64,000 nt of DNA from Candidatus Bathyarchaeota archaeon. Lineage in GTDB: Archaea; Thermoproteota; Bathyarchaeia; Bathyarchaeales; Bathycorpusculaceae. The notes beneath the pieces were generated by a model that saw only the letters and a program-made list of their open reading frames with translations, was not told the origin of the DNA and searched no databases. Where the stretch lies: positions 96,001-160,000 of the forward strand of contig CAVYES010000006.1 in the NCBI GenBank assembly GCA_963767735.1, written 5' to 3'. Both the position numbers and the translations under genes were made by a program. Shown one piece after another: positions 1 to 11,477 of this stretch (positions are counted from its first letter, which is position 1; each line of letters opens with the position of its first letter).

Positions 1-932
<932 letters not shown>

Positions 933-4947: not shown

Positions 4948-5026
4948 GGGCTCGTAGTCTAGTACGGATTAAGGCATCGGCCTCCGGAGCCGAGAATCCT
5001 GGGTTCAAATCCCAGCGGGCCCGCCA
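4948..5026 (+). tRNA. tRNA-Arg(CCG), intronless, encoded CCA
   Basis: Acceptor stem GGGCTCG/CGGGCCC plus G-CCA; anticodon arm TCGGC-CT-CCG-GA-GCCGA; T arm CTGGG-TTCAAAT-CCCAG; TTTAAA TATA-like box about 30 nt upstream. Confidence 0.97.
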
Positions 5027-5217
5027 TTTGAACTTGCAGGTTCAAAATTTGTTTTGTTTTTGGTGGAATTAAGGTTTGATCTGGGCTTAGAACTGGGAAA
5101 ACTTTGTGGAAACGGGTTTTTGAGGCGGATGTTTTGAACTATTTCGATGTTGCATTTGAGATTGATTGAACCAAACGCATGTTAAGAGTACGCTTGGCGG
5201 GCATCGTCTTGCAGAGG

Positions 5218-6021
5218 CTACGGTAACATGAATTCAAGACCCCTATAAAATTGCCTGTAAGCTGGCCTCTTAAACAGTTCTTTGACAGAAACAAACCCCT
5301 CATCGGTCTCCCAGAAACGCGAAGGTGCCTCAGAGCCGAAAACATCGTTCCACATCGACTTTGTCTTTTGTGACCAAACAATTTCTCGCAAAGACACGTT
5401 GGGAGCCGAATCCGGATAATTCTTAACGATCCTTTGCGCTCGCCGCAACGTTTCCTTTGAAGCCCTCCCAATCTCACGATCAGCCAATGCCTCCATCTGG
5501 GGGTTTTGGTCGTTTCTCTGTTTCCAGCAAAGCCACCCAGCCAAGTTAATGGCTTCTCCGGCTTCTTTCTCTGGGTTTTCCTGTGGTTTCCATCCCGTGT
5601 CTTCGGCAAGCGCATAGAGGATAGGCTCAACGATTGCTGGAGGCTTACCAAATTTGCAGGAGACTTCTACCAAAGTTGGCTCTCTTAAAAATCGTAACTC
5701 ACGCTGAAGCTCTTCAAGCGCCAGTCTAACGGCTTCCACTTCAGCCTGGGTTTTGTTGACATTCTCAATAGAAAACAACACATCAGGCATCAGCGAGTTT
5801 GGCGTCCCATAGAAGAGCCCTTTGTGGCAAATCTTCCCACCCGCAACAAGAAACCGCAGCTTGCCTGTGACGGCTACTCCCAGCCCCTTTCGGTCTTTGT
5901 ATCGAATTTGGTACGTTTGCCAGAGGGTTTCTACTATTTCCGTCCAGCGAAGCATGTTAGGTTCATGCTTTTGCAGAAGAGAAACAATGTCCCGCTCAAG
6001 CATGTCAAACTTATCAGCCAT
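5218..6021 (-). CDS. Hypothetical protein, probable N-terminal wHTH
   Basis: 267-aa ORF with IVSLL...LRWTEIVE.L...L..LV..GKI pattern; divergent from the ParB operon. Confidence 0.6.
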   Translation of the reverse strand: MADKFDMLERDIVSLLQKHEPNMLRWTEIVETLWQTYQIRYKDRKGLGVAVTGKLRFLVAGGKICHKGLFYGTPNSLMPDVLFSIENVNKTQAEVEAVRLALEELQRELRFLREPTLVEVSCKFGKPPAIVEPILYALAEDTGWKPQENPEKEAGEAINLAGWLCWKQRNDQNPQMEALADREIGRASKETLRRAQRIVKNYPDSAPNVSLREIVWSQKTKSMWNDVFGSEAPSRFWETDEGFVSVKELFKRPAYRQFYRGLEFMLP

Positions 6022-6222
6022 TTACTACCCCAATTACTTGTTGAATATTAATTCTTTATTAACTAAAATTTGCTTTTATTCTTCAAAGAAATTTTGGTCA
6101 TTAACTATTAATTTTTCGTGGCAAAATCTCAGCAACCGTTTAGGTTTTGGATTGACCATTAGTAGCTAATTAGCTTCCTGTATTTTAGAACCGACCTTTA
6201 TTTTTCTGCAGAGGATAAAGTA

Positions 6223-6786
6223 ATGGAAAAGAAAACAACGGTTAAGGTTCCTGACGCTTATCTGCCATTGCTGGAGGATCTTCGGCTGCTTCGAAATGAC
6301 GGCAACAACCCCAACAAGATGACGATCAAGCAGAAAGACCAGGTTTGGAGCAGCCTACAAAAGTACGGTTGGACTTATCCGATCGTAACCAACAAGGACG
6401 GCGTTTTCGCGGATGGCGAGCAAAGAGCGCAGGTCTGCATAGGTCAGGGCGAGTTTTTTGGTCCAGTTCTTCGACTGCCCGTCTCCGATGTTGACAGGCG
6501 AATGCTGCGGCAGATCCTAAACAAACTCAAAGGCAAACATAGCATGGAGCTTGATGACGCTGATTACAGGCGTATTGTAGAGGCTGGTGAAATCGACTGC
6601 TTAGCTGCACTGTTGCAGTCCATCGGCGAAAAAATGCCGGAAACAGACGGGCGAGCTCCTGAAAACTCAAACATCATTCCTGACAGCTACGAGCTAATCA
6701 TCGAATGCGAGGATGAGACGCAGCAGAAATGCTTCTTTGAGAAGTTGACGGCTGAAGGATACAAAGTGAAAGTTCTAAATCTGTAG
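6223..6786 (+). CDS. ParB/Srx-like N-terminal domain protein (virus type)
   Basis: NPNKM...SL.KYGW..PIV.NKDGV.ADGEQR motif; GAGG RBS. Confidence 0.8.
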   Translation: MEKKTTVKVPDAYLPLLEDLRLLRNDGNNPNKMTIKQKDQVWSSLQKYGWTYPIVTNKDGVFADGEQRAQVCIGQGEFFGPVLRLPVSDVDRRMLRQILNKLKGKHSMELDDADYRRIVEAGEIDCLAALLQSIGEKMPETDGRAPENSNIIPDSYELIIECEDETQQKCFFEKLTAEGYKVKVLNL

Positions 6787-6797
6787 AGGCGGAAAAG

Positions 6798-7481
6798 TTG
6801 GATTTTGATTTTACGGTGAGTTGGAGTGAACCGGATAGTTTTCGAGCTCAAAGCGTCGTTGGCAGCTTCACATTAAGCGACGTAAAGTTACAGAAGCATT
6901 TCAAAGGCTCACTACCGATTGAAAGCTCAGACTGGCAAATCGGCGTCATCGTCGGCCGCAGCGGTTCAGGCAAATCAAGCATAGCAAAAAAGCTGTTTCC
7001 AGACGCATACACCACAGGCTTCGAGTACACAGAAAAATGCATCCTTGATGACTTTCCCCAAGAAACAGAAACAAACCAGATAACCAGGCTCCTATGCAGC
7101 GTCGGCTTCGCGTCACCTCCAGACTGGCTGAAATCTTACAGCTGCCTAAGTCAAGGAGAAAAAATGCGCGTCGACATCGCCAGAACGCTCTGCCTCCCTA
7201 GGAAGCTGATCGTTTTTGATGAGTTCACCTCGGTCGTAGATCGCGAGGTAGCAAAAGTTGCCTCTTACGCAATCAGCAAGGCAATTAGGCGCCGGAAAGA
7301 TAAGAAATTCATTGCCGTAACCTGCCACTACGACGTAGTGGATTGGTTGGATCCAGACTGGGTTTTCTGCACTGACACAATGGAGTTTGACCGAAAAAAA
7401 GAGGGCGGCCGCCCGTTGAGCTCAAGGTTTACCGGTGCGGCAAATCCACGTGGACACTGTTTCGGCAATATCACTATCTAA
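6798..7481 (+). CDS. Soluble ABC-family ATPase; N-terminal part of a probable ABC-GNAT fusion
   Basis: Walker A GRSGSGKS, signature LSQGEK, Walker B IVFDEFTS, H-loop VTCHYD; no permease gene nearby. Confidence 0.9.
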   Translation: MDFDFTVSWSEPDSFRAQSVVGSFTLSDVKLQKHFKGSLPIESSDWQIGVIVGRSGSGKSSIAKKLFPDAYTTGFEYTEKCILDDFPQETETNQITRLLCSVGFASPPDWLKSYSCLSQGEKMRVDIARTLCLPRKLIVFDEFTSVVDREVAKVASYAISKAIRRRKDKKFIAVTCHYDVVDWLDPDWVFCTDTMEFDRKKEGGRPLSSRFTGAANPRGHCFGNITI

Positions 7482-7900
7482 ACGGCAATCTCGGCGCAGG
7501 CGTCAGATGCTACAGTGCCTTCTACCACGAAAAACCAGTAGCGTTTATCGCAGTCGCGCACGTGCGAATGAGGGGACACTTCTTTCGAGTCAGCCGCCTC
7601 GTTGTTTTGCCCGATTACCAGGGTATAGGCGTCGGAAAGCGTCTGCTTAATTTTGTCGCCGAGCTCTATACTTCTCAGTTGAATTTGCCGTTCTATTTGG
7701 TTACGAGCAATCCACAGCTAGTTCGAGGAAATCTAGACCACTGGATTGTAAAACGTGTTGGGCACAGCGGCCATGGAAGGAATGATTCAAGGATAAATCG
7801 GGGGCTCATAAAGTCGGCAAGCAAGGGACGGCTTACTGTAACACTCCAATATGTTCGAAAGAGAATTAAAGGTGACAATGTTGGATGCAATAACACTTGA
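7391..7900 (+). CDS. GNAT-fold acyltransferase in the -1 frame relative to the ABC ORF
   Basis: Frame opens right after TGA 7388-7390: ...RPPVELKVYRC..STWTLFRQYHYLN...RVSRLVVLPDYQGIGVGKRLL (acetyl-CoA motif QGxGxG). Confidence 0.85.
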   Translation, partial: PKKRGRPPVELKVYRCGKSTWTLFRQYHYLNGNLGAGVRCYSAFYHEKPVAFIAVAHVRMRGHFFRVSRLVVLPDYQGIGVGKRLLNFVAELYTSQLNLPFYLVTSNPQLVRGNLDHWIVKRVGHSGHGRNDSRINRGLIKSASKGRLTVTLQYVRKRIKGDNVGCNNT

Positions 7901-8282
7901 AAGACGCTTAGAAATCTTGAAGCTTGAAGGAAACGGCTTAGAACCGTGCGAAATTGTGAAGGAACTAAGTGTAAAATATCGGGTATCTGAACGTGCCGTA
8001 TACAAAGATTTTGAGAGCCGTAACAGCTGGCAGCCCCAACTTCAAGAGATGAAGAAAATACTGTTAAAAGTGATTAACCGGCATGAGCAGATGTATCGTA
8101 AAGCCATAGTTGCATACATGCAGGCAAAATCTGACCGCGCTCGCATAGCAGCTTTGAATCTTATGCGTCAAATAAATGAGGATATCGCCGAGATGTCAGG
8201 AGCCAAAACCAAAGGTGAGACGGAACCTGAAGAAATCCGAATAAAATGGGAGGACCCTAAAACATGCACAAAACAGCAGTAA
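7878..8282 (+). CDS. HTH protein, putative terminase small subunit
   Basis: AGGTGA RBS before ATG 7878; HTH EIVKELS.KY.VSERAVYKD, helical middle region, C-terminal EIRIKW strand; overlaps the TerL start. Confidence 0.65.
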   Translation: MLDAITLERRLEILKLEGNGLEPCEIVKELSVKYRVSERAVYKDFESRNSWQPQLQEMKKILLKVINRHEQMYRKAIVAYMQAKSDRARIAALNLMRQINEDIAEMSGAKTKGETEPEEIRIKWEDPKTCTKQQ

Positions 8283-9526
8283 TCAAATACAAGCCTCATC
8301 CTGGACAAGTTGAATTTCACTTTAATTCAGTAAGGTTCCGAGTGCTCAACTGTGGACGCCGCTGGGGCAAAACCGTTGCAGGCGCTAACGAGTTCATTAG
8401 GCAAATTTGGCAGAAAGGCGAGGGCAAAGAAAAAATGGGCATTGTGGCATTTGCTGTTGCCCCCACTTATTGGCATACTCAGCGTCAATGGAGCGAGTTC
8501 TTCAATTATTGCCCGCCTGAACTTATAGAGGAAATCCGCAGGGCTGAACGGCACGTTATTCTCAAAGGAAAACGTCACATCTGGTTTAAAAGCGCAGATA
8601 ATCCTGACTCGCTTAGAAGCCAAGGAGTAAAGGTCCTATGGGTTGACGAGGGAGCTCAGATTGCGGAGGAGGCATGGACTATGGCGCTTAGGCCTGCATT
8701 GATGGATGAGAAAGGCATCGCCTTCTTCACAGGAACGCCCAGAGGACATAACTGGTATTTTCAGCTCTGGACCCGAGGCCAAGATCCGTCGCAAACTGAT
8801 TATAAGAGTTGGAGCTTCCCCAGCGGCAGCAACCCGTATCTGGATCCAGCGGAGATTGCTTCTTTTGCCCGTGACATGCCTGAACTTGCTTATCGCCAAG
8901 AGGTTATGGCTGAGTTTCTTGAGGATGTTGGCTCAGTCTTCAGAGGCGTAGACCACATTGTTAAAGGTACCTTCCAACCGCCTGAACCGTACAAGCAATA
9001 TGTTATGGGAGGAGACCTTGCTAAACTCATAGACTTTACAGTGCTAATCGTTCTCAATATGGACGGACACCTATGTGCCTTTGACAGGTTCACCCAGCTA
9101 GACTGGGTTTTCCAACGCAAACGCATAATTCAACTAGCCCAACAATACAACGCCCGCCTACTAATCGACAGTACAGGAGTCGGAGACCCAATCTGCGACG
9201 AGATCCGACGTGAAAACGTTCGAGTTGACGGCTACAAATTCACCAATACCACAAAAAAAGATCTCATAGAAAACTTGAGCATTATGATCGAGAACGGACA
9301 GGTTACGATACCGCAAATTCCTGAGTTAATTAATGAGCTCAAACTCTACGGGTACAAGATCAGCGCCAGTGGGAACGTGCAGTATGGAGCACCCGAAGGC
9401 TACCATGACGATTGCGTTGTTGCATTAGCGTTAGCTGCTTGGCAACTTAAGCGTTCTCCCCCTCTTCTGGGAATCGGTGTCTCGGTGATTAAGAAAAAAC
9501 CAGTTTACAGAGACGAAGATGATTAA
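8264..9526 (+). CDS. Terminase large subunit
   Basis: PHPGQ, Walker A GRRWGKT, Walker B VLWVDEGA, FTGTP.G.NW, nuclease GGDLAK..DFT and HDDCVVALALA; reading frame intact. Confidence 0.95.
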   Translation: MHKTAVIKYKPHPGQVEFHFNSVRFRVLNCGRRWGKTVAGANEFIRQIWQKGEGKEKMGIVAFAVAPTYWHTQRQWSEFFNYCPPELIEEIRRAERHVILKGKRHIWFKSADNPDSLRSQGVKVLWVDEGAQIAEEAWTMALRPALMDEKGIAFFTGTPRGHNWYFQLWTRGQDPSQTDYKSWSFPSGSNPYLDPAEIASFARDMPELAYRQEVMAEFLEDVGSVFRGVDHIVKGTFQPPEPYKQYVMGGDLAKLIDFTVLIVLNMDGHLCAFDRFTQLDWVFQRKRIIQLAQQYNARLLIDSTGVGDPICDEIRRENVRVDGYKFTNTTKKDLIENLSIMIENGQVTIPQIPELINELKLYGYKISASGNVQYGAPEGYHDDCVVALALAAWQLKRSPPLLGIGVSVIKKKPVYRDEDD

Positions 9527-9614
9527 AATAAAAAAGAATTTTGTCTTGGAAGCCGGCTGGGAAAAACTAATGAATCTTTATTGGGATTTATTGGTCTGAA
9601 ACTGAGGGTTTAGT

Positions 9615-10160
9615 ATGGAAGATGAAGTGGTAATCATCGAAGTCGTACCCAAAATGTTTGATGTCGTCAATACACCGGATAAATTCAGTTTTAGAGTCAA
9701 CTACATAAAAGAAATGTACGATGTAAATCAGCCAATTACTCGTAGACCAGAGTATTTGGCGGTTAGAGACCCGGGTTACTCCCGAATCGAATTACTCTTT
9801 AAAATCGATTTGCTTAAGTCTAATTTTGAAAAGGGACAGCTGGTTCCTCAAGGCAAACCAATATTTCTTCAATCTTATTTGAGACTGAAGGAATCCTCCA
9901 CCACTCATGTTGTGTACACGCCACAGGGAGCGGGAGAAGAAGGATCGTTAAAGAGAACCATTTGGTACACGTCTTTTAGGACTTTGCTAACGCATAGTTC
10001 AACAGATGAATTCATCGGAGAAAAGTCCAAACCATTTACGCGTGTAAACCTTTGCAACGGCTTTTACTGCAAACATTTCAGCTACTGCGAATTCTTCAGT
10101 CACTCGGAAAACCCTATTATAAAAAGCTCCAGCTTACCAAAAAGAAGTATCGTCAAATGA
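9615..10160 (+). CDS. Hypothetical protein
   Basis: 181-aa ORF with RBS-like GAGGG; no recognisable family; not portal-like. Confidence 0.6.
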   Translation: MEDEVVIIEVVPKMFDVVNTPDKFSFRVNYIKEMYDVNQPITRRPEYLAVRDPGYSRIELLFKIDLLKSNFEKGQLVPQGKPIFLQSYLRLKESSTTHVVYTPQGAGEEGSLKRTIWYTSFRTLLTHSSTDEFIGEKSKPFTRVNLCNGFYCKHFSYCEFFSHSENPIIKSSSLPKRSIVK

Positions 10161-10178
10161 CACGAGAATTCTAAACTT

Positions 10179-11477
10179 TTAAGATTTGTAAGTTATCTGG
10201 GAAGCCCTTAGATTGCCTTTTGATGCTTTTCTTCTCTTGCGAAAAGCTGTTACCAACGTTGTTCCTGCAACTACAACTATGACTACAAGAGTGATTATTG
10301 CTAACGAAAACTCTGGAATTGTAGGTATAGGAGATGGCGAAGAGCTATTTGTACTAATGATTTTAATAGCAGAGGTTTTTGCCAGCCAATTATCACCAAC
10401 CCCATTACTAACTGCAAACGTGTACCCTCCATCATCTGTTTGCAATACCGAGTAAACAGTTCCATTACATGCTATTTCCCATTGCAGGTTTCCATCTGAG
10501 TCTGTCTTAACTAAGTTTCCTGAAAACCCTCCACATGCTAAAGCGTATCCTCCGTCACTCGTTTGTATAACTGACCAAGCGACTTCACCTCCAAGTTCTC
10601 CGTACGTTTGATTCCAAAGCAACTTGCCATCCGAATTAGTCTTAATCATGAAAACTGTATTCGAACCGCCTGCCAAAACGTATCCTCCATCGCTGGTTTG
10701 AATAATCGAATTAGCTTCAAAGTAGCCTGAAGGTCCATTGTAGGTTTGGTTCCATAACATGTTACCCAAAGAGTCAGTTTTAATCAGCAAAGCATTACTT
10801 TCTGATGTGGAAGTTTCCACGAACCCTGCTAAAGCATATCCACCATCACTTGTTTGAACCATTGACGTGCAATAACTGACCGCTTCGCCTCCATAGGTGT
10901 GGCTCCACTGAATCTCGCCAGTCGAATTAACTTTAGCCAACCAAAAATCTCCATTACTGCTTCCCGCCATAATGTAATCCCCATCATTTACAGTAATCAA
11001 AGATGATACGTCTATTCCAGTGTAAGATTGTCTCCATTGCACATTGCCTTGGGAATCAAGTTTAACCAAGTAAGAAGAATTAGACGTACCGCCTGCAAGT
11101 GCAAATCCTCCGTCTGAAGTCTGTACAATCGAATTTGCTCCACCCCAGTTTGTATTCATTGTTGAATCGTAATCGAAACCAGCCATATTCCACTGTTGAT
11201 TGCCTGAGGAATCGACTTTAACCACCCAAAAATCTATTATGCCAACTGCAATTTCCATTCCCATGCCTGCTAATGCATAATCTCCATCAGTGGTTTGTAT
11301 CATCGAACGAATTGAACTTGAATCTCCTGTACTGTATGCATGTTCCCAAACAATAGGCGGGGCAGTCGATGAAGCAGAATTAGCGGTCGCCAAACTTGTT
11401 GGTTCCACGATTGCTGCTAAGAATATGAGTTCAAACACAAAAACAACTGCAACATATTTCCAGTTCATAGACAGCAA
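10179..11477 (-). CDS. Secreted beta-propeller-like repeat protein with a PEF-type C-terminal anchor
   Basis: Signal peptide; repeated QTSDGGY.LAG...L.K.DS.G...W; tail PTIPEF, TM helix, RKRRK. Confidence 0.85.
   Translation of the reverse strand: MLSMNWKYVAVVFVFELIFLAAIVEPTSLATANSASSTAPPIVWEHAYSTGDSSSIRSMIQTTDGDYALAGMGMEIAVGIIDFWVVKVDSSGNQQWNMAGFDYDSTMNTNWGGANSIVQTSDGGFALAGGTSNSSYLVKLDSQGNVQWRQSYTGIDVSSLITVNDGDYIMAGSSNGDFWLAKVNSTGEIQWSHTYGGEAVSYCTSMVQTSDGGYALAGFVETSTSESNALLIKTDSLGNMLWNQTYNGPSGYFEANSIIQTSDGGYVLAGGSNTVFMIKTNSDGKLLWNQTYGELGGEVAWSVIQTSDGGYALACGGFSGNLVKTDSDGNLQWEIACNGTVYSVLQTDDGGYTFAVSNGVGDNWLAKTSAIKIISTNSSSPSPIPTIPEFSLAIITLVVIVVVAGTTLVTAFRKRRKASKGNLRASQITYKS

Follow-up and report, generated by a model that had tools for sequence, protein, structure and literature searches.

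A conserved -1 frame break at an adenine run between the ATPase and GNAT domains of a viral gene in Bathyarchaeia is consistent with programmed recoding

The two reading frames of the ATPase-GNAT gene

We have analysed a stretch of 64,000 nucleotides (nt) from Candidatus Bathyarchaeota archaeon (GenBank assembly GCA_963767735.1, contig CAVYES010000006.1, positions 96,001 to 160,000 of the forward strand), hereafter called the window, in which a gene of the ABC-ATPase/GNAT phage family is written in two overlapping reading frames that meet at a run of adenines. An ABC-type ATPase open reading frame (ORF) of 227 amino acids (aa) is located on the + strand at window positions 6798-7481, with its stop codon TAA at 7479-7481, and matches PF00005 (E-value (E) 1.2e-9; 39.4 bits, where the gathering score used as cut-off is 25). 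The -1-frame continuation at 7400-7900 (+ strand; 166 codons, stop at 7898-7900) encodes a linker and a GNAT acetyltransferase, with residues 35-103 of the -1 peptide matching PF00583 (E 2.7e-8; 34.5 bits, cut-off 20.7). In the profile of the phage family, phrog_11143 (357 positions), residues 13-206 of the ATPase ORF align with positions 11-201 (E 1.4e-58) and residues 3-156 of the -1 peptide with positions 197-350 (E 8.3e-30); that is, both domains of the profile are matched, and the two frames hand over exactly at the A run.

In the ATPase frame, window positions 7380-7425 read ATG GAG TTT GAC CGA AAA AAA GAG GGC GGC CGC CCG TTG AGC TCA A. The run of seven adenines (A7) occupies 7394-7400 (+ strand) in the phase A_AAA_AAA, with its last A at the third codon position of the 0 frame (i.e., that of ORF 6798-7481); in this phase, it has the form X_XXY_YYZ of a slippery heptamer. 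The -1 frame is shut by a TGA at 7388-7390, immediately 5' of the run, and is open from 7391 to the stop at 7898-7900, reading PKKRGRPPVELKVYRCGKSTWTLFRQYHYL... / PKKRGRPPVELKVYRCGKSTWTLFRQYHYLNG.... The earliest ATG, GTG or TTG in this frame is the GTG at 7562, within the Pfam-matched GNAT core. An earlier note, made from the sequence alone, had proposed that ribosomal frameshifting or transcriptional slippage at this heptamer yields an ATPase of 227 aa together with a fusion of about 367 aa, and that the first start codon in the -1 frame would cut the GNAT fold. The positions it gave for heptamer, TGA and GTG all check out, the GTG falls where the fold would be cut, and the product sizes, when recomputed, are 227 aa for the 0 frame (residues 1-201 before the slip, then a 26-aa tail) and 201 + 166 = 367 aa for the fusion.

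The A7 run by itself is uninformative because such runs are common in this DNA: 62 were counted in the window on both strands, versus 89.5 expected from shuffles. The feature of the site that exceeds chance is its conservation. A second A7 lies at 9253-9259, inside the ORF of the terminase large subunit (TerL), where there is no frame break.

Conservation of the frame break

We have compared 82 close copies of the gene: the one in the window, a paralogue in the same genome, and 80 genome loci, which are the best 80 of 194 relatives (216 stretches; one genome per species). The 80 loci were drawn from several projects and assemblers. Their label is Candidatus Bathyarchaeia or Bathyarchaeota except in four cases, two named "uncultured archaeon" and two named Anaerolineaceae. 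The last two (L023 and L051) are contigs of 3.0 and 7.1 kb in metagenome-assembled genomes; they carry a cassette of the Bathyarchaeia type at 76-80% identity and are likely misbinned viral contigs.

The -1 break is shared by all 82 close copies. The run is A7 in 72, A8 in two and A9 in eight of them, hence at least seven in every copy, and in all 82 its last A is at codon position 3 of the 0 frame and the 0-frame stop follows 81 nt past the run. Most of the copies have a stop in the -1 frame three codons 5' of the last A; past the run, that frame is open over 153-179 codons in 72 copies, cut short in eight, and runs off the end of the locus in two. A protein search yielded 7115 matches, the best 120 of which (72-96% identity) are all 282 aa or shorter, mostly 221-230 aa. 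The earlier note had asked for a conserved frame break among homologues and regarded close homologues that are all in-frame fusions as grounds to drop its proposal. Run and break recur in each of the 80 genome loci and in the paralogue; together with the lengths of the best 120 protein matches, this shows that the second outcome did not occur.

In the host class, the gene occurs in 8 of the 301 genomes searched, all of one family and seven of them (that of the window included) of one genus, a patchy occurrence that fits a virus.

The genome from which the window derives has four copies of the cassette. Two are intact (on contigs C6 and C10); the paralogue on C10 (L002; C10:13870-17544) shares A7 and -1 break with the window copy, to which its ATPase part is 79% identical. 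The other two, on C7 (at about 182.4-183.3 kb) and C8 (at about 250.5-251.6 kb), are clearly degraded. These remnants, and the location of the window copy in a truncated provirus island (see below), could be taken to mean that the break marks a dead gene, or else an assembly error. However, the truly degraded copies look different, with 3 and 7 stops, and in the intact gene both halves are under purifying selection; A run, hairpin and both frames are intact in the window copy. As to the assembly, the Logan contigs from three sequencing runs of three studies cross 7394-7400 without an inserted or deleted letter (X2 record 9, 7373-7580; X3 record 12, 7273-7423; X4 record 15, 7320-7470), which settles in favour of A7 the choice between A7 and A8 that the earlier note had left to the reads; run X1 has no cover at 7207-7502 and is silent on the A run. 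A search for sequencing runs that contain the stretch found none of RNA. With A7 in three independent runs and the same break across projects and assemblers, an error of the assembly and a mutation private to this genome can both be dismissed, and we consider error or decay of the gene a negligible explanation.

The wider family and its history

Among the best 150 of 2986 matches in a search of 1.84 billion cluster representatives, relatives with an identity of 55% or less are mostly in-frame fusions of 353-385 aa, accompanied by a few divergent forms of 225-235 aa that end in KKK-containing tails. A scan of IMG/VR gave 126 stretches with 123 relatives, of which 80 were kept. In all, 162 sequences have been classed according to whether, and by how much, the reading frame differs between the Walker-B and YHYL motifs. 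The anchor patterns were unmatched in 12 of these (11 viral loci and one genome locus whose run and break had been established among the 82 close copies), which left 150 classifiable sequences.

A -1 break is present in 115 of the 150, and 114 of these 115 have a run of at least seven: A7 in 81, A8 in 3 and A9 in 30 sequences, the remaining one (L141) being broken with no run. Thirty sequences are in frame and have no run, four are in frame and have an A10 (L125, L126, L128 and L129), and a single one (L131) shows a +1 relation at a T9 run. The same run and break occur in 33 of the 69 classifiable viral contigs, and the GNAT frame stays open for at least 125 codons past YHYL in 106 of the 115 broken copies. 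The heptamer reads A_AAA_AAG in two variants (L127 and L132). In L131, the T9 run is situated at the ATPase/GNAT joint, with GNAT in the +1 frame, and the break in L141 is not accompanied by an A run of 6 or more; these two may represent alternative slip signals at the domain joint, or dead genes.

We have inferred a phylogeny of the ATPase part with FastTree (148 rows; two further classified sequences were omitted). One clade of 112 rows, with a support of 99, comprises 80 A7, 28 A9 and 3 A8 rows and one in-frame A10 row, L125; the rows outside it are mostly in frame. The joint coverage of phrog_11143 by the two frames, the in-frame distant relatives and this topology show that the fusion is the ancestral state. 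Every row of the 112-row clade but L125 is broken; the break is therefore old, has been maintained, and was reverted once, through the gain of one A.

The revertant deserves a closer description. L125 is a viral contig of 32 kb, in which the ATPase-GNAT gene is one in-frame ORF at 5992-7077 encoding 361 aa. It contains an A10 and is nested among A9 rows, one of which, L114, has 92% identity to it over the ATPase part; its protein covers positions 15-354 of phrog_11143 (E 2.8e-94). One additional A has restored the frame in L125, which shows that the length of the run varies in the DNA itself on an evolutionary time scale. One could go further and suppose phase variation, in which the run changes length during replication and only the rare A8 or A10 genomes make the fusion; the in-frame A10 of L125 among A9 copies, with its closeness in sequence to L114, speaks for such a switch. 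Nevertheless, only one of the 112 clade rows is in frame, the contigs of the three sequencing runs contain no indel variant (Logan contigs do drop rare variants), and a switch in the DNA needs no conserved hairpin downstream. Phase variation is thus very improbable, and so are phase variation, error and decay when they are taken together.

Selection on the run and on the two frames

Across the 82 close copies, entropy is zero at the seven A's and at the invariant G that follows, and neighbouring third positions reach 1.6-1.9 bits. Both lysine codons of the slip site are AAA in 82 of 82 copies, versus a mixture of AAA and AAG in 11 out of 11 other conserved lysine columns, where the minor codon is found in 13-38 sequences. 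The arginine before the run is specified by CGA (64) or AGA (8) only, as compared to the use of all six codons in other conserved arginine columns. With the other conserved columns as an internal control, this codon usage indicates that the A run is under selection as nucleotides.

The ratio of nonsynonymous to synonymous differences (pN/pS) was pooled over pairs of 114 broken copies. Upstream of the run, the 0 frame has a ratio of 0.124, and the two remaining frames exceed 1. Between codon 16 of the -1 frame and the 0-frame stop, the -1 frame has 0.25 versus 1.01 for the 0 frame; past the 0-frame stop, the -1 frame has a value of 0.31, and the 0-frame values from codon 16 onward are 1.0-1.1. 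These ratios show that the codon-position signal changes frame at the run and that both frames are under purifying selection.

A predicted hairpin downstream of the run in A7 forms

In the window copy, the minimum free energy (MFE) structure is a predicted RNA hairpin at 7408-7441 (+ strand), beginning 7 nt after the heptamer; structures that stimulate -1 frameshifting are expected at a distance of 5-9 nt. Its outer arms, GCCGCCCG (7408-7415) and CGG-U-GCGGC (7433-7441), form a GC stem of 8 base pairs with a bulged U at 7436, and a weaker inner helix pairs 7417-7422 with 7426-7431. The earlier note had pointed to two palindromes, GGGCGGCCGCCC (7403-7414) and TTGAGCTCAA (7416-7425); both are present, but the conserved stem is neither palindrome folded on itself. 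The hairpin is 91.3% paired across 79 distinct sequences. An Rfam scan of 7200-7700, with E up to 10, gave no match.

The prediction differs between A7 and A9 forms. Over the 45 nt after the run (z from mononucleotide shuffles), the 71 distinct A7 sequences have a mean MFE of -18.3 kcal/mol and a mean z of -2.97, as compared to -5.4 kcal/mol and 0.0 for a control stretch of the same number of distinct A7 sequences, and to -6.0 kcal/mol and 0.08 for 27 distinct A9 sequences after the run. A hairpin of -12 kcal/mol or lower is predicted in 80 out of 80 A7 rows versus 1 out of 29 A9 rows. The third positions of the -1 frame within the arms have a mean entropy of 0.02 in 78 A7 sequences versus 1.00 in 24 A9 sequences; further downstream, it is 1.50 in both. 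Dual coding of the 26-aa 0-frame tail was considered as a cause of these frozen synonymous sites and rejected for its last 10 codons, where 0-frame pN/pS is 1.01; for the stem region it is unlikely, as the A9 forms vary freely at the same positions.

Proposed mechanism and competing explanations

We propose that ribosomes reading straight on would stop at TAA 7479-7481 and release the 227-aa ATPase, and that a fraction of them would slip back by one base on CGA-AAA-AAA, where the two tRNA-Lys can re-pair with identical AAA codons. The slipped ribosomes would read AGA GGG CGG..., giving ...DRKK-RGRPPVELKVYRCG..., and continue to 7900 to complete the 367-aa ATPase-GNAT fusion. In the A7 lineage, the slip would be made by the ribosome, aided by the GC-rich hairpin that begins 7 nt past the heptamer; in the A9 sister lineages that lack the hairpin, slippage of RNA polymerase adding one A would lead to the same protein, as both routes give ...DRKK RGRPP....

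Programmed -1 recoding of some kind at the domain joint of this viral ABC-ATPase/GNAT gene is, in our judgement, probable: the conserved break, the selection on the run and the in-frame relatives all point to it, as they do to the earlier note's pair of mechanisms. That the slip occurs, how often, and which machine makes it, we infer. A hairpin 3' of a slip site can hinder a ribosome and cannot act on an RNA polymerase, by which it is not yet transcribed. It is for this reason that ribosomal frameshifting is favoured for the lineage of the window, and we lean towards it, somewhat, as the form that recoding takes in the window's A7 copy.

Several observations weigh against this interpretation or parts of it. 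For the hairpin, none of the 14 stem pairs changes on both sides in a covariation count, RNAalifold returns no consensus structure for the 82 junctions, and by dinucleotide-preserving shuffles the fold of the window copy does not stand out (z -0.79), being equalled by 41 of 200 shuffles. The association between run length and hairpin amounts to only four independent contrasts on supported branches, three that agree and one tie (p 0.25). The window copy itself, placed in a short island with TerL and without portal, may perhaps no longer be expressed. The other points concern the machine that slips and the possibility that no fusion is made at all.

Some of them suit RNA polymerase better than the ribosome. 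In transcriptional slippage, the archaeal enzyme would slip on the T7 template run and add one A, such that part of the mRNAs encode the fusion in frame. As many as 30 of the 115 broken copies have an A9, the tree forces at least five changes between A7 and A9, and the in-frame relatives L125, L126, L128 and L129 keep an A10 at the site, L125 from within an A9 clade. The A9 forms, moreover, have no downstream hairpin. In reporters of another poly-A family, the yield was 10% for A7, 40% for A9 and 63% for A11 (PMC3711429), and slippage has been proposed for A9 and A8 runs of insertion sequence (IS) elements, some of them of Sulfolobus solfataricus (PMC1088944). On the other hand, A7 is short for efficient slippage by a polymerase: published cases have runs of 8-9 or more, longer than the A7 of the window copy but attained in its sister lineages, with 30 of the 115 broken copies at A9 and three at A8. 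The conserved hairpin 7 nt downstream, with its frozen synonymous sites, is found in A7 forms alone and would be useless to the polymerase, and the one archaeal example investigated experimentally, fucA1 (A-AAA-AAT), has been described as translational (PMC1616953, PMC8211752). As a variant of recoding, slippage of the polymerase in the window copy is a real though less likely contender, which we rate below ribosomal frameshifting.

Other points bear on whether the two halves are fused at all. A one-base deletion could have split the ancestral fusion into two separate overlapping genes, with GNAT starting at a Met of -1 codon 16 or 19. An ATG at one of these codons is present in 84 of the 115 broken copies and in only 3 of the 34 in-frame relatives, and copies that lack Met at one of the two codons often have it at the other (with Met at codon 16 and another residue at codon 19: M/S 10, M/T 6, M/V 5). 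Over the 15 codons right after the run, furthermore, pN/pS does not favour the -1 frame, with 0.75 (-1) versus 0.65 (0) leaving the frames unseparated. For these ambiguous codons, the argument draws instead on homology and on the structural model. Directly after the run, the -1 peptide, RxRPPVELKVYRCG..W..FRQYHYL, can still be matched to the in-frame relatives, which have the pattern RP.I.L.IY/H there; it aligns with L125 (KKRQRPKIDLDIHRCSGSLWQQFRQYHYL) and with others (SVQPRPSLNLKVFKAKRDVWRVFARHHYL). An AlphaFold model of the 361-aa L125 protein (44-row alignment; pLDDT 91.3, pTM 0.87) places the run at about K200-K201 and predicts that the only linker consists of residues 199-208, which are followed by a strand (209-214) and a helix (216-225) belonging to GNAT. 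According to this model, a protein begun at codon 16 or 19 would lack the strand and half of the first helix. No ATG, GTG or TTG occurs between the run and YHYL in 24 of the 115, among them the window and whole subclades such as L110-L116, and two separate genes leave unexplained both the invariance of the run at synonymous sites (82 of 82) and the frozen arms of the hairpin. We therefore regard separate genes as an improbable alternative to recoding. A stand-alone, N-terminally shortened GNAT may still be a third product in many copies.

In the window, codons 16 and 19 of the -1 frame, at 7448-7450 and 7457-7459, specify Thr and Leu. We also considered a GGTG ahead of the codon-16 Met as a Shine-Dalgarno-like element and dropped it, since its distances of 10 nt from codon 16 and 19 nt from codon 19 are unconvincing.

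A broader proposal, which we put forward tentatively and hold to be possible rather than probable, is that the family uses two interchangeable devices at the same codon: A7 with a 3' hairpin, for the ribosome, and A9 without a hairpin, for the polymerase. Lineages would have swapped one for the other several times, with an occasional in-frame A10 revertant.

Gene neighbourhood and predicted function

The conserved upstream partner of the gene is a ParB-like gene at 6223-6786 (+ strand; 187 aa; phrog_620, E 1.7e-9; phrog_498, E 1.4e-10), for which a Pfam scan gave no match; it is also present upstream in the paralogue on C10 and in L125. In the C10 copy, a small ORF resembling a helix-turn-helix protein is found upstream of ParB rather than downstream of GNAT. 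Between the GNAT part and TerL lies an ORF of 143 aa (7851-8282, + strand) with a weak match to phrog_15023 (E 0.0038) and none in Pfam. A similar ORF stands beside the paralogue, and one of 155 aa at the equivalent place in L125; by its position, the 143-aa ORF may encode a small terminase subunit. TerL itself (420 aa) is at 8264-9526 on the + strand (PF03237, E 2.6e-14; PF17289, E 9e-8; phrog_2, E 8.2e-42). The gene order in L125 is ParB-like gene, ATPase-GNAT, 155-aa ORF, TerL, portal and minor tail protein.

The cassette of the window forms an island with a G+C content of 0.44-0.49 at 5-9 kb versus 0.34-0.41 at 10-16 kb. This island (5000-10200) contains ParB, ATPase/GNAT, the 143-aa ORF and TerL, with no portal gene after TerL, and none of 14 neighbouring ORFs scanned against PHROGs matched an annotated structural family. 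Relatives of the L125 portal were found on contigs C4, C8 and C2 of the window's genome and none on C6 or C10. The island is probably a truncated provirus remnant. About 5 kb from the cassette, a 308-aa ORF on the - strand (window 3-926) runs off the end of the window; it matches phrog_21942, of unknown function (E 1.2e-102).

The ABC-ATPase/GNAT family has been predicted to acyl-modify a DNA base (PMC7824862), and acylation of a DNA base is the function that this published prediction would assign to the enzyme described here. In a structure search with the L125 protein (Foldseek), the best matches are ABC nucleotide-binding domains. Ranked 13th among these is TmcA (2zpa_A; E 8.5e-8, TM-score 0.29), an ATPase-plus-GNAT enzyme that acetylates a tRNA cytidine; this resemblance of a model is a lead, not a test, for an ATPase driving the acylation of a nucleic-acid base.

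Comparison with known systems

According to a 2021 review (PMC8211752), the only -1 programmed frameshift demonstrated in an archaeon is that of fucA1 (alpha-L-fucosidase) in Saccharolobus solfataricus P2, in line with the earlier note's remark that few are documented in archaea; the review also mentions predicted cases in archaeal siphoviruses. As described, fucA1 resembles the gene in the window in having two ORFs that overlap by -1, an A-rich heptamer (A-AAA-AAT there, A-AAA-AAA here), a putative stem-loop, and full-length relatives that differ by one A in the run. It differs in being a cellular gene, broken in two strains and full-length in other Sulfolobales. In the viral gene described here, 115 diverged copies retain the break, which falls exactly at the domain joint and makes the short product a complete ATPase; the present case is known from sequence alone.

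The dnaX gene of E. coli slips at A_AAA_AAG with a hairpin. That of Thermus thermophilus has an A9 and uses transcriptional slippage (PMC1088944, PMC3711429). The tau and gamma products of dnaX, like those proposed here, are a long and a short protein from one poly-A site, and the gene family likewise includes both a heptamer with a 3' hairpin and a longer, hairpin-free run. In dnaX, which is bacterial and cellular, the slip truncates the protein, whereas here it would add a whole catalytic domain. In IS1/IS3 (OrfA/OrfAB) and in phage lambda (G/GT), slipping by -1 joins the upstream protein to the domain encoded after it, at a fixed ratio of the two proteins. These are also -1 fusions of a mobile element or virus, but the proteins are unrelated, with an enzyme here instead of a chaperone or a transposase, and G/GT uses G_GGA_AAG without strong structure.

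A cluster of poly-A -1 frameshifts in magnesium chelatase (chlD-like) genes includes Methanocaldococcus and Methanococcus (Antonov et al. 2013, PMC3711429). It shares with our family a conserved -1 break, at A7-A11 runs, in archaeal and bacterial genes, and its discovery by comparative genomics; it concerns another gene family, was tested in E. coli reporters, and shows no pattern of hairpin versus run length in the text available. With the ABC-ATPase/GNAT phage family (PMC7824862), the likeness is that our two halves cover the whole profile and that a ParB-like gene lies upstream and a terminase downstream; typical members are single in-frame proteins, and the available text makes no mention of a frameshift. 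Our literature search found no paper describing a frameshift in this ATPase-GNAT family, and in the paper on Bathyarchaeia viruses (PMC10848311), the words acetyltransferase, ABC, frameshift, ParB and GNAT are absent. The device proposed here is of a type already known; for the gene family and the host group, we found no published description of it.

Implications

For an archaeal case, the comparative evidence is unusually deep: it comprises 115 natural copies that have diverged from one another, a codon control within the gene itself, and outgroups in which the frame is unbroken. The two natural forms (A7 with the hairpin, A9 without) make the question of ribosome versus polymerase directly testable. 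There is also a consequence for annotation: in place of the one gene, gene callers report an "ABC transporter ATP-binding protein" and an acetyltransferase that is either truncated or missing, which hides a widespread viral enzyme of a family predicted in print to modify DNA. If the family does use two devices, both mechanisms would operate in these archaea, and its members would be a natural series in which to measure how the length of the run and the structure after it affect the ribosome and the RNA polymerase of archaea. A fixed ratio of ATPase to ATPase-GNAT would then matter for the enzyme, e.g., via mixed ABC dimers.

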